Origin: a virus | Lineage: Monodnaviria; Loebvirae; Hofneiviricota; Faserviricetes; Tubulavirales; Inoviridae | Direction: 5' to 3' (one strand) | Virus record (IMG/VR): IMGVR_UViG_2579778797_000001 | Location: 1-7,549 of that record | DNA length: 7,549 bases | Part shown: positions 1-7,549 of the stretch, piece by piece | How positions within the stretch are numbered: position 1 is the stretch's first letter | Layout: every line of letters begins with the position of its first letter | Notes under the pieces: model-generated | What the model was told of the DNA's origin: nothing | Databases searched by the model: none | What the model saw: the letters and a program-made list of their open reading frames with translations, nothing else | Made by a program: the position numbers and the translations under genes

Positions 1-1215
<1,215 letters not shown>

Positions 1216-1229
1216 TTACCCCCGCAAAA

Positions 1230-1589
1230 TTACTTGCCAACATTAAGCCCATTTGATTTAAATAAATCATAAACCAATCGATACACTCTATCCTTATAAA
1301 GATATATGTATGAAATAAATTGAACATGGAGGATGATATTAAAACAGTACTGAATATTTAAAGGAAGGTAACTGAATGCAACTACAATAACATCGAGTTT
1401 ATTAACATCGGAGATTTGACGAATAATAAAATTGACGGCAGATACAAGAGCATAATATGAAGTGTAGCAAAGACCAAGATAAGAAAGGAGCTTAGCCCAT
1501 GCAACAGCTTTATCACCGATAACTCCTGCAATGAAACGTAGTGATTTTAAAACAACATCAACAAAAAAAGCACCTAAAATGGCCCACAT
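1230..1589 (-). CDS. pVI-like minor coat protein (119 aa)
   Basis: Very hydrophobic ~119-aa protein sitting between pIII and pI as in Ff. C-terminal half resembles Ff pVI (ISD...LP.N...CF.IIL.V). Its ATG overlaps the pIII stop (TGATG) at 1587-1591. Confidence 0.8.
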   Translation of the reverse strand: MWAILGAFFVDVVLKSLRFIAGVIGDKAVAWAKLLSYLGLCYTSYYALVSAVNFIIRQISDVNKLDVIVVAFSYLPLNIQYCFNIILHVQFISYIYLYKDRVYRLVYDLFKSNGLNVGK

Positions 1590-2953
1590 CAGAGTTTTAC
1601 CTCACGTTCAAATAATGTACGGCGAGAAATAACAAAAACGCGTAACATGGTTATCATATAAATAGCATATTCAAGAACAGAACGAACATAATCGTCATAA
1701 GCTTTTGCAAAATGGCTTGTATCAATCTTGAAATTAATCGCGCCAATCAACGGAAGATTAAAGCTAAACTGTAAAGTAAAAGGAAGAGCAGTTCCATTAT
1801 TTGTATTTACCAGTTTGTCAATATTAACTGTAAGCCAATTGTTATTATCATGACTCTCACTTCCCTGTCCTGGCAAATAATGCGAAAGCTCCCCTAAAGG
1901 GAAATCCCCATCAGGCAAAGAAGAAGCTATATTCTGACTAATATCTTTAATACCATTGTCCAGTGAATTTAATGCATTATTCATATCAGCCTGAGAAACA
2001 GAAAAAGCATTATTTAAATCATTCACTGACACCCATATTGTTTTTAACCAGCCCAAAATACCATCAAGCCAGCCATTGTCATCGCCGGATGAGCCACCGG
2101 ATCCTGAACCTGAACTACCGCTACCGGATGAACCGCCGGAGCCCGAGCCGGAGCCACCGCTACCGGATGAACCACCGGAGCCAGAACCTGAACCACCACT
2201 GCCGGATGAGCCGCCGGAACCCGAGCCGGAGCCACCGCTACCGGATGAACCACCGGAGCCAGAACCTGAACCACCACCGGAACTGCCGCCGCCTGGGTTA
2301 CCACCACCGGAACTGCCACCACCTGAGCTACCGCCATCCTCCTTACCATCGGAGAATGCAGGATCTACAGCAACTGGTTTCCAGTCGGCAGTACAAACTG
2401 TATCATCATCGGGATTACAAATAAGAGGATTGCCGGTTGCCTCATAAATACACCCCTGCACATTAACATAACGGGTCCCGTCATCACCTTTATAAACATC
2501 AGAAAAAGTCATACCATCAAGAACCGGACGAGAAAGACAAATCTCGTCAGTTGGCGGCTTATTATATTCAGGTGTCAAATCCCCCTCACCACCCTGAAAA
2601 GCAAGGGTGCAGGCTGTCCACTTTTGCTTGTCTGAATCCCAGACTTTATATGCTGACCACCGGGCACGGACAAAAGACCCGACAGTCGAAGGTGCATTAA
2701 CAGGCGTTGAAAGTGGCACACCACAATAATGAATTATTCCGGAACATGCGTCATAATTGCCCGAACCACAGAAAAGATGACCGGCCGCCCTGGCTAATTT
2801 AATCGACGTCCCCGCGTCCGAATAATCTGTCCTGCAGGATGAATGGCCTGCACACTGAACAAGTGCATCCGGATTTTCTTTCTCTTCAGCGAAAGAAAAC
2901 GAGGAAAAGAACAAAAACAGAAGCGGAATAATAAAGTGAATCAAAAAAAACAC
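1589..2953 (-). CDS. pIII-like adsorption/minor coat protein (454 aa): signal peptide, Cys-rich N-terminal domains, Gly/Ser linker, C-terminal anchor domain
   Basis: Signal-like N-terminus (FFLIHFIIPLLFLFFSSFSFA). Motif RYVNVQGCIYEATGNPLICNPDDDTVCTADWKPV matches the Ff g3p N1 core (RYANYEGCLWNATGVVVCTGDETQCYGTWVPI, from memory). Gly/Ser linker at aa 207-290 and C-terminal hydrophobic anchor (YAIYMITMLRVFVISRR). Start is GTG at 2951-2953 with AGGAG directly upstream (spacing very short); exact start uncertain. Confidence 0.9.
   Translation of the reverse strand: MFFLIHFIIPLLFLFFSSFSFAEEKENPDALVQCAGHSSCRTDYSDAGTSIKLARAAGHLFCGSGNYDACSGIIHYCGVPLSTPVNAPSTVGSFVRARWSAYKVWDSDKQKWTACTLAFQGGEGDLTPEYNKPPTDEICLSRPVLDGMTFSDVYKGDDGTRYVNVQGCIYEATGNPLICNPDDDTVCTADWKPVAVDPAFSDGKEDGGSSGGGSSGGGNPGGGSSGGGSGSGSGGSSGSGGSGSGSGGSSGSGGSGSGSGGSSGSGGSGSGSGGSSGSGSSGSGSGGSSGDDNGWLDGILGWLKTIWVSVNDLNNAFSVSQADMNNALNSLDNGIKDISQNIASSLPDGDFPLGELSHYLPGQGSESHDNNNWLTVNIDKLVNTNNGTALPFTLQFSFNLPLIGAINFKIDTSHFAKAYDDYVRSVLEYAIYMITMLRVFVISRRTLFEREVKL
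2084..2335. repeat. In-frame imperfect tandem repeats encoding the pIII Gly/Ser linker (about 5 copies of a 39-bp unit, then 15-bp units)
   Basis: Minus-strand translation GGSSGSGGSGSGS repeated. The antisense frame reads PDEPPEPEPEPPL about 4-5 times, showing the 39-bp period directly. A near-identical block recurs after 78 bp (gagccggagccaccgctaccggatgaaccaccggagccagaacctgaacc). Confidence 0.85.
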
Positions 2954-2964
2954 TCCTGGTATGA

Positions 2965-2989
2965 TTAAAAAAGCGCCCCGGAGGGCGCT
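2965..2989 (-). terminator. Rho-independent terminator downstream of the pVIII-like gene
   Basis: On the minus strand a 7-bp GC stem (AGCGCCC / GGGCGCT, plus 2972-2978 and 2983-2989) with a 4-nt loop is followed by a run of six U (plus-strand A-run 2967-2972). Position matches the strong terminator after gene VIII in Ff. Confidence 0.8.
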
Positions 2990-3004
2990 GTCATTAAATA
3001 ACTA

Positions 3005-3265
<261 letters not shown>

Positions 3266-3271
3266 TTAAAA

Positions 3272-3442
3272 TTAATTAACAGCATCACTGAACATCCGGC
3301 AGACCAGAGTGAAAATAACACCAAGACCAAAGCCAAGAAGCCAGCAGACAATCCAGACATAAAGAACGGCCCAGTAAAGCTCCCCGTCCTGTACGCCAGA
3401 ATTCAGTGCGGATAAAACACCGCTGAAATCAAATTCAGTCAT
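3272..3442 (-). CDS. Small hydrophobic protein (56 aa from ATG at 3442, or 67 aa from GTG at 3475); possible pVII/pIX-type minor coat protein
   Basis: One strong TM segment (LYWAVLYVWIVCWLLGFGLGVIFTLV), located between the gV-position gene and pVIII as gVII/gIX are in Ff. No clear Shine-Dalgarno before either start; overlaps the upstream small ORF by 8 nt. Confidence 0.5.
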   Translation of the reverse strand: MTEFDFSGVLSALNSGVQDGELYWAVLYVWIVCWLLGFGLGVIFTLVCRMFSDAVN

Positions 3443-3579: not shown

Positions 3580-4005
3580 TCAGCCTTTTTCTTTACCTGC
3601 GGGCAGTGCACCCAGCGGCTGACCGTCAAAACGTTTCATGGAGCCGGAAATAAAACGATACCAGACACCATGACGTTCTGAGCCTGTCGACCATGAGTTA
3701 ACATCCACCGTGAGATAAACAGGTTTGCCCTGCAAATCAGGACATGAATTAAAAAATTTAAAATCCTCCTCAGTACAGGAAAATCGCTCATGCTCCTCAC
3801 GGCGGACTTTTAATTTTCGGTCCTCATACGGATAGGCAATAACAATGGCATATTTGGGTTTAGCCTCAGGGTTATAATGAGAACCCGTGGGTTTTAACTC
3901 CTCATCATTTATGACAGTGGCGTGAATAAAATATCCCGCCATTGTCATGCCTGAGGTAAAACCCTCAGGGGAAGGAAACGGAAAACTGTCGTAAATTTGA
4001 TTCAT
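3580..4005 (-). CDS. Hypothetical protein (141 aa) in the position of the ssDNA-binding/RstB-type gene
   Basis: ATG at 4003-4005 preceded by GAGGAG at about 9 nt; starts 30 nt after the Rep stop. Function is inferred from position only; no motif recognised. Confidence 0.7.
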   Translation of the reverse strand: MNQIYDSFPFPSPEGFTSGMTMAGYFIHATVINDEELKPTGSHYNPEAKPKYAIVIAYPYEDRKLKVRREEHERFSCTEEDFKFFNSCPDLQGKPVYLTVDVNSWSTGSERHGVWYRFISGSMKRFDGQPLGALPAGKEKG

Positions 4006-4035: not shown

Positions 4036-6277
<2,242 letters not shown>

Positions 6278-6410
6278 GACCTCATGTCCTCATGATGACA
6301 AACAAAAAAGAACATACTCAAAAAACATCATGAACACAAGATGTATTAACAACATTTGCTCAAGTGCTCTAGAGTACATGATGGCTAAATACAAAAAAGG
6401 GGGCTAAATA
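6278..6410. promoter_or_regulatory. Divergent intergenic control region between the Rep operon and the RHH gene, with short repeats (candidate operators and/or origin)
   Basis: AT-rich 133 bp. CATGATG at 6291-6297 and 6377-6383 and inverted (CATCATG) at 6326-6332. Tandem CCTCATG at 6280-6286 and 6288-6294. Palindrome CTCTAGAG at about 6367-6374. No convincing sigma70 hexamers could be assigned by eye. Confidence 0.4.
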
Positions 6411-6611
6411 ATGGCTGAAAAAAGAAAGAGTTATAACGTGCCAAACGAGAAGTATCTAAAGCTAGAAAGATTAGCTATTGATGCAAGTCAAAAGATAGGA
6501 AGGAGCATAAAATGGACCGAAGTACTGTCTTACATGATAGATCACTACGCAAAAGACGCAGCAATAGATATGGTAAGTCAGGAAGAACTTAAGAAAAAAA
6601 AGGCAATGTGA
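6411..6611 (+). CDS. Small ribbon-helix-helix (CopG/Arc-like) putative transcriptional regulator (66 aa), divergent from the Rep operon
   Basis: ATG at 6411 preceded by AAGGGGG. N-terminal basic beta-strand-like segment (KRKSYNVP) followed by two predicted helices (EKYLKLERLAI; KWTEVLSYMIDHYAK), typical of RHH repressors. Position is analogous to rstR in CTXphi. Confidence 0.6.
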   Translation: MAEKRKSYNVPNEKYLKLERLAIDASQKIGRSIKWTEVLSYMIDHYAKDAAIDMVSQEELKKKKAM

Positions 6612-6674
6612 TCCCTTTCCCAACGTCAAACAAACAGGCCAGGAAAGATCAAAGGAAAAGTTAAACAAGGAAAT

Positions 6675-6830
6675 ATGCAGATAACCAGTGACTTAATCCT
6701 TGACCTGCTGATAAAGCATTTCGTTGTTGGCAGCATCACAGGCATGACAATATTCAGCCTGATAACGCTTGTCCCACCGTTGGTGATGACCATACACAAA
6801 AAACTAAGTAAGGACACTGAAATCCTTTAA
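6675..6830 (+). CDS. Small membrane peptide (51 aa), not in the ORF track; co-oriented with and downstream of the RHH gene
   Basis: ATG at 6675 with AAGGA just upstream. Translation MQITSDLILDLLIKHFVVGSITGMTIFSLITLVPPLVMTIHKKLSKDTEIL has one TM helix followed by a basic tail. Stop at 6828-6830 is 30 nt before the terminator at 6860-6899. Confidence 0.35.
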   Translation: MQITSDLILDLLIKHFVVGSITGMTIFSLITLVPPLVMTIHKKLSKDTEIL

Positions 6831-6859
6831 GGTTCAGTGCGCACAATGACGTTATGTAT

Positions 6860-6899
6860 AAAAAGGCCGCTGCGGTGGAGAGTATCGCAGCGGCCTTTT
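6860..6899. terminator. Bidirectional rho-independent terminator at the prophage edge
   Basis: Perfect 10-bp stem GGCCGCTGCG / CGCAGCGGCC (6865-6874 and 6886-6895) with an 11-nt loop, flanked by AAAAA (6860-6864) and TTTT (6896-6899), giving a U-run on both strands. Confidence 0.75.
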
Positions 6900-6929
6900 C
6901 AACATAACGCGTGTCACATTATGCGCACC
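6897..6929. other. dif-like XerC/XerD recombination site; prophage-host junction
   Basis: Minus strand reads GGTGCGCATAA TGT GACACGCG TTATGTTGAAA. The first 14 nt equal E. coli dif (GGTGCGCATAATGTATATTATGTTAAAT, from memory), then the sequence diverges. A XerD-arm-like TTATGTTGAAA (9/11) lies 11 bp from the XerC arm instead of 6 bp. Confidence 0.7.
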
Positions 6930-7005
6930 AATATAAACCAAGGAAGAATCCAGTCGTTGGCGGTCATGATTGTCATGCTCATTAACAATGACCAAACCCC
7001 ATATC

Positions 7006-7209
7006 TCACTTACTACCGTATTCTCGGCTTAACCGTCCATGCAACCTCAACACATTGCTTTCAACTGCCGTCACCACGTTCTCCGGAAAATCTGTCGGTA
7101 ATGAAGTCTTCACGTTATCCAGTGCTGCTGGAATCATTCTGGCAAAGTCACTCAGGATTTCATGCATCTGCACTTCCGGGAATCTCAGCACCTTTGCTGT
7201 CGCCAAAAA
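7006..7209 (-). pseudogene. hipA: 3' fragment of hipA (HipA toxin kinase C-terminal ~67 codons); gene truncated at its 5' side
   Basis: Translation FLATAKVLRFPEVQMHEILSDFARMIPAALDNVKTSLPTDFPENVVTAVESNVLRLHGRLSREYGSK matches my memory of the E. coli HipA C-terminus. The frame is closed by a TGA immediately upstream (7210-7212), so no full-length hipA is possible. HipB operators lie 25 bp away. Confidence 0.6.
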
Positions 7210-7234
7210 TCATGTCATACGTCCACAGCAAGTT

Positions 7235-7347
7235 TATCCGCTTAAGGGGATATTATAAGTTTTATCCTTTAGTGAGGATAAGTCAATCTGGAAACACATC
7301 TTATCCGCTCTACGGGATAAACGCTGCGATATCCGCGATCGCGGATA
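7235..7347 (-). promoter_or_regulatory. hipBA promoter-operator region: four HipB operator palindromes TATCC-N8-GGATA
   Basis: Exact TATCC-N8-GGATA at 7235-7252, 7263-7280, 7302-7319 and 7330-7347 (the last an 18-bp perfect palindrome TATCCGCGATCGCGGATA). Centre spacings are 28, 39 and 28 bp. This matches the published HipB operator consensus and four-operator organisation. Confidence 0.75.
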
Positions 7348-7399
7348 AAAAGGAGGATTTAAATAAGGCGTTGATGCGCCGTTTGAAGTCGGCAATATT

Positions 7400-7428
7400 A
7401 AGCCGCATGCCATCTCGACATGCGGCTT
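7400..7428. other. Inverted repeat / hairpin just downstream of the autotransporter-like gene (possible weak terminator)
   Basis: AAGCCGCATG (7400-7409) pairs with CATGCGGCTT (7419-7428) around a 9-nt loop. Flanks are A/T-rich but there is no clean U-run on either strand. Confidence 0.35.
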
Positions 7429-7435
7429 ATACGGT

Positions 7436-7549
7436 TTACCAGCTATATTTCACTCCCAGCATGCCCTGAGTATCGCTATAGCCTTTATCACCTAGTTGCA
7501 CACCGACATTCCCCCACAGGCTAAGGTTGTTAGTGACATTTCCCGACAT
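7436..7549 (-). CDS. 3' end (last 37 codons) of an outer-membrane autotransporter-like gene continuing beyond the window (yneO/ydeU-like position upstream of hipB)
   Basis: Minus-strand frame open to the window edge; translation ...GNVGVQLGDKGYSDTQGMLGVKYSW then TAA at 7436-7438. Alternating hydrophobic residues and a terminal aromatic (YSW) are typical of the last beta-strand of autotransporter barrels. In E. coli K-12 an autotransporter pseudogene lies directly upstream of hipB (memory). Confidence 0.5.
   Translation of the reverse strand: MSGNVTNNLSLWGNVGVQLGDKGYSDTQGMLGVKYSW

Follow-up and report, generated by a model that had tools for sequence, protein, structure and literature searches.

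A putative repressor-operator region between a probable RHH gene and the rep operon of an Escherichia coli filamentous prophage

Gene order of the prophage and the 66-aa protein

The stretch of DNA analyzed here, hereafter called the window, has a length of 7,549 bp. It is most of an E. coli filamentous (inovirus) prophage together with its right junction, and the prophage is dif-integrated. The following genes and features were assigned:

1-1212, minus strand: Zot/pI-like gene
1589-2953, minus strand: pIII-like gene with a Gly/Ser repeat
3005-3265, minus strand: coat-protein-like gene
3580-4005, minus strand: ORF weakly matching a G5P-type ssDNA-binding family, below threshold
4036-6036, minus strand: rep, 666 aa, P2 gpA-type HUH replication endonuclease (PF05840, phrog_91)
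6029-6277, minus strand: orf82, 82 aa, weak match to phrog_3104, first gene of the leftward operon
6411-6611, plus strand, divergent from the orf82-rep operon: gene of the 66-aa probable RHH repressor (phrog_2503)
6835..6930: attP-like hairpin of two inverted dif-like sites (fold -37.7 kcal/mol, z = -10.1)

Rep matched PF05840 with E = 2.5e-48 and showed 28% identity to the A protein of P2 over 419 aligned amino acids; its PHROG, phrog_91, is described as 'nicking at origin of replication'. The rep gene starts at position 6036 and overlaps orf82 by 8 bp. The spacer under study, 6278-6410, exactly fills the gap separating orf82, which starts at 6277 (minus strand), from the 66-aa gene, which starts at 6411 (plus strand). 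Small phrog_3104 ORFs precede rep in inoviruses of differing Rep families (window 6029-6277, minus strand; L002, the inovirus of strain cS51a, 7840-8031; L004, 3618-3812; L006, 3396-3587) with a conserved N-terminus M-x-I-V-Y-(Y/F)-D-(Y/F); this ORF is missing from L003, the related phage of strain 700481.

In complete E. coli genomes, near-identical and related prophages adjoin hipBA, often in tandem, at a location which we take to be the dif region. The exact E. coli dif sequence was not matched anywhere in the window with up to three mismatches, and the dif-like sites of the attP hairpin are diverged from E. coli dif by more than three mismatches. As ssDNA, this stretch forms a long hairpin with a 6-nt bulge, in which the GC-rich stem lies between the dif-like AGTGCGCACAATGACGTTATGTATAAA and the complement of GGTGCGCATAATGTGACACGCGTTATGTTGAAA. 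It looks like a CTXphi-type attP(+) substrate for XerCD, is common to the otherwise unrelated L002 phage and completes an RS2-like module layout. A megablast search of a phage collection with the whole window gave no match.

Several further differences among related prophages were observed. In the pIII-like gene, the Gly/Ser-rich linker consists of tandem repeats with strain-variable copy number (window 2044-2349; strain TD225-C4, L001, 4084-4380), and the Zot gene, for which L001 carries an annotation of two CDSs (2193-2837 and 2780-3364), is one ORF in the window. The chromosomal flank at 6935-7549 carries a deletion of about 1.4 kb relative to L001, in which window position 7216 aligns with 9314 and window position 7209 with 10690 of L001. 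This deletion takes out hipB and most of hipA; a 66-aa hipA-remnant ORF (7006-7206, minus strand) stays and adjoins the C-terminus of an ECSE_1600-family autotransporter. Additionally, a candidate ORF of 51 hydrophobic aa (MQITSDLILDLLIKHFVVGSITGMTIFSLITLVPPLVM...) is located at 6675-6830 (plus strand) in a stretch linked to the gpA-type backbone, which is conserved in L003 and absent from L002; it is without a family match and unannotated in RefSeq relatives.

The exact sequence of the 66-aa protein was found on 335 public contigs and is labelled 'hypothetical' in all of them; automatic UniRef names of some relatives are TraY, RstR and 'repressor-like'. An AlphaFold (AF2) monomer model with a pLDDT of 78 predicted residues 1-11 to be unstructured, followed by a helix (12-29), a short loop and a second helix (35-65). 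In RHH proteins, the N-terminal strands of two subunits pair into a sheet entering the major groove. The order of elements in the model is compatible with this fold, the strand being unable to form in a monomer. A Foldseek search of the PDB with the monomer model revealed nothing significant. A G-x-S/T/N turn between helix A and helix B is a hallmark of RHH proteins, and the G-R-S loop motif is also present in Arc and Mnt. The 66-aa protein possesses such a turn, G30-R31-S32, in the loop of the model; furthermore, G30 is invariant in the family alignments A2 and A3.

The best PDB match of the 66-aa family was the RHH protein ParG (1p94) with a sub-threshold E-value of 0.12. Pfam ParG was matched with E = 0.014 by two of 18 family members, under the curated cut-off. 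ParG was the only recurring sequence match of the family, always below threshold. The window protein itself matched only DUF7753 (E = 0.038) and had no match in NCBIfam; an hhalign comparison of the family alignment with approximate sequences of Arc and Mnt gave no match either. A significant match to a curated RHH family was not obtained. Because all sequence matches fell below threshold, the protein is called a probable and not a proven RHH protein. A literature search for RHH repressors in filamentous phages revealed only a passing mention of an omega-like ORF of Pseudomonas phage PMBT54 and nothing on the phrog_2503 family.

Repeats, tetramer boxes and candidate promoters in the spacer

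The original prediction had described three copies of CATGATG, one of them inverted, a tandem CCTCATG pair and an 8-bp palindrome in the spacer. All of these motifs are present and their coordinates proved exact. CATGATG is located at 6291-6297 and 6377-6383 on the plus strand and at 6326-6332 on the minus strand, CCTCATG at 6280-6286 and 6288-6294, and neither motif has another copy in the window; the palindrome CTCTAGAG is located at 6367-6374. Chance levels were estimated with 5000 dinucleotide-preserving shuffles of the 133-bp spacer. A non-trivial 7-mer present at least three times on either strand occurred in 96 of the 5000 shuffles (about 2%), and 10 repeated 7-mers were seen as compared to 2.5 expected (p = 0.004). 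Considered in isolation, the repeats exceed chance only modestly, the palindrome not at all. Since 28% of the shuffles hold an 8-bp palindrome, CTCTAGAG by itself is meaningless; it was rejected as a standalone feature and consists of a CTAG box plus a -10 hexamer.

The pattern underlying these repeats is a series of eight CWWG tetramers, five of them CATG, in just two 8-bp registers with three and five boxes, respectively. CATGATG is TCATGA(TG) read one base off centre, and the CCTCATG pair corresponds to two 8-bp units of the left array. The number of in-phase box pairs was 13, a value reached by 16 of 1000 shuffles with the 4-mer class and the period (6 to 12) left free. As three of the eight boxes are CAAG or CTAG instead of CATG, the CWWG class was chosen after looking, and the selection-corrected p-value for this window alone is about 0.016. 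The two arrays and the candidate promoters are arranged as follows:

6275..6298: left operator array (putative), three tandem 8-bp units CATGACCT / CATGTCCT / CATGATGA with CATG cores at 6275, 6283 and 6291
6329..6384: right operator array (putative), one register of seven 8-bp slots, with boxes in five (CATG 6329, CAAG 6337, CAAG 6361, CTAG 6369, CATG 6377)
6346..6375, plus strand: P_R, candidate promoter of the RHH gene, TTAACA, 18-nt spacer, TAGAGT (consensus match only)
6311..6339, minus strand: P_L, candidate promoter of orf82-rep, TTGTGT (complement of 6334-6339), 17-nt spacer, TATGTT (complement of 6311-6316)

The left array includes the CCTCATG pair and the first CATGATG. It overlaps the start codon of orf82 (complement of 6275-6277) and the GAGG Shine-Dalgarno sequences of this gene. 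The right array includes the inverted CATGATG, the CTCTAGAG palindrome and the third CATGATG; its two empty slots, 6345 and 6353, coincide with the -35 hexamer of P_R (6346-6351) and the beginning of the P_R spacer.

P_R was the sole consensus promoter found by a promoter scan. It matches the consensus at 9 of 12 positions, which is no commoner than in shuffles. The boxes overlap this candidate promoter, in line with a role as operators: the -10 hexamer falls within the CTCTAGAG palindrome, and P_R overlaps the boxes at 6369 and 6377. P_L was found by eye, its -35 hexamer matching at three of six positions and thus under the scan threshold; a leftward promoter was found by the scan in the same general place in the related locus L014. 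The -35 hexamers of P_L and P_R are located back to back, 6 bp apart. Both hexamers of P_R and those of P_L are conserved in L002.

Inheritance of the spacer and probable position of the plus-strand origin

Comparison of the window with related prophages revealed three recombinants. L002 encodes an unrelated Rep ('replication initiation factor domain') and differs in its structural genes; homology to the window was found only at 6247-6621 (86% identity) and in the attP region 6835-6934. From the structural genes through rep, L003 and the window represent one phage (96-97% identity), with 96% identity for Rep. Homology between the two ends exactly at 6035 and restarts at 6672; between these breakpoints, the spacer of L003 is another one and is accompanied by a gene for a 62-aa protein of the same PHROG, 47% identical to that of the window. 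Furthermore, L002 and the prophage of E. coli E24377A have a common backbone with one swapped patch, which begins 9 bp within the small upstream ORF, takes in the spacer and ends at around codon 42 of the RHH gene. The small upstream ORF is 94% identical in L002 and E24377A and hence was not swapped. From these three recombinants we conclude that inheritance of the spacer follows the N-terminal half of the 66-aa protein, and not Rep or the small ORF. The alignments show that the spacer and the N-terminal half of the RHH gene, which presumably reads the DNA, are exchanged as one cassette between backbones, also between phages with unrelated Rep proteins. This is the behavior expected of an immunity-specificity module.

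A third RHH allele with the beta-strand DTTVRINE is present in about 25 complete E. coli genomes including ETEC strain E24377A (see L027-L033 and L049). The 3' end of the window RHH gene (6537-6621, encoding ...SKEELKKKKAM) showed about 79% DNA identity to this allele. Since the 3' end is common to both, a recombination junction must be located inside the RHH gene, near codon 42.

The original prediction would have been contradicted by motifs that are not conserved among related phages, and the comparison with L002 gave the opposite result. In the RHH coding sequence, 22 differences between the window and L002 were found, 21 of them at third-codon positions (21/67, about 31%). Despite this synonymous divergence the boxes are invariant: 0 of 32 box bases differ, as compared to 21 of 104 other spacer bases (Fisher p = 0.002). 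Over the array span, 9 of 110 bases differ. The left array is identical in L002, and the overlap with the ribosome binding site and start codon of orf82 could by itself explain part of this conservation. All five cores of the right array are invariant; the third CATGATG site reads CATGAGG in L002, with the CATG core kept.

The spacers of L003 and L015 cannot be aligned to that of the window, yet they have the same layout of three TGCA boxes, an A-rich gap and five TGCA boxes with 8-bp spacing. The RHH beta-strand of these phages is KSIGISNE as compared to KSYNVPNE in the window. In the relatives L004 and L014, which have the strand (M/A)TYNVTEE, (C/T)TCATGA-type boxes were found, and three boxes of L014 are located at the offsets from the RHH start codon that are also seen in the window (-82, -74 and -42). 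Across the family, the box core apparently varies along with the sequence of the RHH beta-strand. Hence, divergent RHH alleles come with other boxes in the same layout, which agrees with operators and promoters as the content of the spacer. The sites are co-inherited and co-vary with the part of the repressor that presumably reads DNA, independently of the rest of the phage, as do those of a repressor-operator module.

To extend the comparison, 39 further loci were gathered from genomes and viral contigs, and 20 representative upstream regions were analyzed. Base autocorrelation upstream of the 20 RHH homologues gave a Stouffer z of 7.7 at lag 8 and 5.6 at lag 16 relative to dinucleotide-preserving shuffles; the next highest value was obtained at lag 4 (z = 4.6). 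In the control regions, z at lags 8 and 16 was 1.8 and 1.4 (150 bp located downstream of the gene) and -0.4 and -2.3 (a stretch lying another 400 bp upstream). No 8-bp periodicity was found in the DTTVRINE subgroup, which contains CGCATGCG-like palindromes instead.

These data bear on the possibility that the repeats reflect chance or base composition, the left array being a by-product of a duplicated SD-ATG sequence, and have no operator function. A three-copy 7-mer in about 2% of the shuffles, the palindrome in 28% of them and the coincidence of the left array with the ribosome binding site and start codon of orf82 on the minus strand are in line with such an explanation. We nevertheless consider it quite improbable: the boxes remained invariant against the synonymous divergence of about 31%, the box layout returns, with another core, in the non-alignable spacer of L003, and the family-wide lag-8 signal is missing from the control regions.

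Alternatively, the boxes may be functional but read by the orf82 product or by a host protein, while the 66-aa protein plays another role. The link between the 66-aa protein and the boxes is indirect, and orf82 is the unannotated first gene of the leftward operon. However, the spacer was swapped between L002 and E24377A together with the first approximately 42 RHH codons, while the adjacent small ORF was kept; L003 is devoid of orf82 and yet has the same 3 + 5 box layout. Moreover, the box core tracks the RHH beta-strand across the family, whereas a host factor would demand one site in all alleles. Recognition of the boxes by a protein other than the 66-aa protein therefore appears rather unlikely.

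The original prediction had also named the spacer as a possible place of the Rep nick site and plus-strand origin, replacing or alongside the operators. The origin is located next to rep in many rolling-circle elements; furthermore, the spacer contains inverted repeats and as ssDNA folds somewhat better than shuffles (-13.8 kcal/mol, z = -2.8). However, L003 combines the same Rep (96%) with an unrelated spacer, and L002 an unrelated Rep with the same spacer, so that 6278-6410 is not co-inherited with Rep as an origin should be. The nick sequence of P2 was taken from the rep_origin feature of the P2 GenBank record, where the A protein nicks at 29892 inside gene A, within GCGCCTCG^GAGTCCTGTCAATAACTGT. 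A counterpart of this annotated site was found in the window:

4042..4065, minus strand: candidate plus-strand origin nick motif CCTTGGACTTGTGACAATAACTGT, 24 nt, in the last codons of rep

With up to three mismatches, the family consensus CCTTGGACTYGTGNCANTAACTGT matched only this site in the window, in 0 of 200 shuffles, and nowhere in 6278-6410; the motif is about 2.2 kb away from the spacer. In the Vibrio inovirus VFJ it was also found at the 3' end of rep, and in HP2 and P88 within the rep gene. In the RS2 element of V. cholerae VCE232, the motif starts one base past the stop codon of the gpA-like rstA, which indicates that it is conserved as DNA and not merely as a peptide. P2 resembles the phage studied here in that Rep belongs to the gpA family and the P2 nick-site motif is conserved, here at the 3' end of rep. 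It differs in that the site is at codon 620 of 761 in P2, whereas the candidate site is within the last 10 codons here and, in VCE232 RS2, the motif is just beyond the rstA-like stop codon.

Given the linkage data and the nick motif, the spacer is a very unlikely place for the Rep nick site, and an origin in 6278-6410 is highly improbable, whether instead of operators or in addition to them. As judged from motif conservation, 4042-4065 is probably the plus-strand origin of these inoviruses. The non-coding, Rep-linked stretch 6612-6834 was also considered as an origin and rejected, as it has neither a significant fold (z = -1.15) nor the nick motif. A minus-strand origin hairpin in the spacer is not favored either, its fold being weak (-13.8 as compared to -37.7 kcal/mol for attP).

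Proposed regulation and comparison with known systems

Taken together, we propose with a probability of roughly 70% that the spacer is where a temperate, dif-integrated filamentous phage is controlled, with repressor operators over back-to-back divergent promoters. The divergent promoters and operators of the original prediction are thus retained, while its nick site is more likely located elsewhere. According to this proposal, which is derived from sequence comparison, two back-to-back divergent sigma-70 promoters would drive transcription of the RHH gene (P_R) and of orf82-rep and the downstream phage genes (P_L). One dimer of the RHH protein would bind per tetramer box with the core CATG/CWWG, TCATGA being the best form. 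The 8-bp spacing would bring neighboring dimers into contact and permit cooperative coating of the DNA, as known for ParG on O_F and MetJ on the met-boxes. The five-box right array covers the -35 hexamer of P_L and all of P_R; its occupation would repress the replication and morphogenesis genes and lead to autoregulation. The three-box left array, positioned in the leader, ribosome binding site and start codon of orf82, may additionally serve as a roadblock or for cooperative anchoring. The Rep nick site would be located at the 3' end of rep instead of in the spacer.

The arrangement is of a known kind, namely a repressor-operator module with a CTXphi ig-2-like layout; the protein family itself is uncharacterized. 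RstR of CTXphi is an HTH protein, and its gene occurs as ET, classical and Calcutta alleles. Repressor and spacer likewise form a module with exchangeable alleles in the phages studied here, and in both systems the prophage is located at dif with an attP-like hairpin of two inverted dif-like sites. CTXphi ig-2 is a spacer of 138 bp with adjacent divergent promoters and three RstR sites, where the repressor autoregulates its own synthesis (PMC4762005). The spacer of the window is similarly compact (133 bp) and located between the repressor gene and a divergent rep operon, with adjacent candidate promoters and multiple putative repressor sites. The RS2 record of VCE232 has the same module order, attRS/ig-1, rstR, ig-2 and gpA-like rstA. 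Differences concern the repressor, which belongs here to an unrelated small family (phrog_2503, probably RHH), the 8-bp-phased tetramer boxes in place of long RstR operators, the host E. coli and the extra small ORF, orf82, ahead of rep.

ParG of plasmid TP228 binds to eight ACTC tetramer boxes in O_F, which are separated by 4-bp spacers and present in mixed orientation; one dimer binds per box and the DNA is coated cooperatively (PMC3130281). Eight tetramer boxes with an 8-bp period are thus found both at O_F/parH and in the spacer of the window. The core is ACTC in the ParG system, whereas it is palindromic CATG/CWWG here, the spacers between the boxes are not uniformly AT-rich here, and there is neither a ParF-type ATPase partner nor any sign of a centromere role; the sequence match to ParG is below threshold. 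MetJ is an RHH repressor as well, which binds to tandem 8-bp units with a palindromic centre (met-box AGACGTCT), adjacent dimers cooperating, and requires S-adenosylmethionine as co-repressor. A sequence relationship between MetJ and the 66-aa protein was undetectable.

Homologues of phrog_2503 were found in Escherichia, Salmonella, Klebsiella, Yersinia, Xenorhabdus, Dickeya, Vibrio and Pasteurellaceae. We tentatively suggest, with somewhat less than even confidence, that these proteins together with their upstream arrays form a widespread family of immunity cassettes in gammaproteobacterial inoviruses, with a code linking strand to core and with swapping of the spacer plus about 42 codons among three Rep families. 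Under this code, the outward-facing strand residues S-N-P or T-N-T may specify a CATG core and S-G-S a TGCA core.

If confirmed, a function would be given to a small 'hypothetical protein' whose family is widespread in enterobacterial and vibrio inoviruses, and both superinfection immunity and mosaicism of the filamentous prophages stacked in tandem at E. coli dif would be accounted for. The alleles would also provide a natural series of RHH-operator pairs with differing cores, useful for deriving recognition rules or orthogonal repressors. The likely origin of gpA-type inoviruses at the rep 3' end matters for the construction of replicons or phagemids. Current understanding is not overturned, as the layout corresponds to CTXphi ig-2, the repressor fold being a different one.

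Additionally, an RHH-protein homologue was observed in phage If1 (L048, NC_001954.1). The 150 bp upstream of its gene are without an 8-bp box array and contain GC-rich sequence. The gene itself is intact, encodes 63 aa and is located at 5143-5298 on the minus strand, unannotated, in what is annotated as the 'major intergenic region'.
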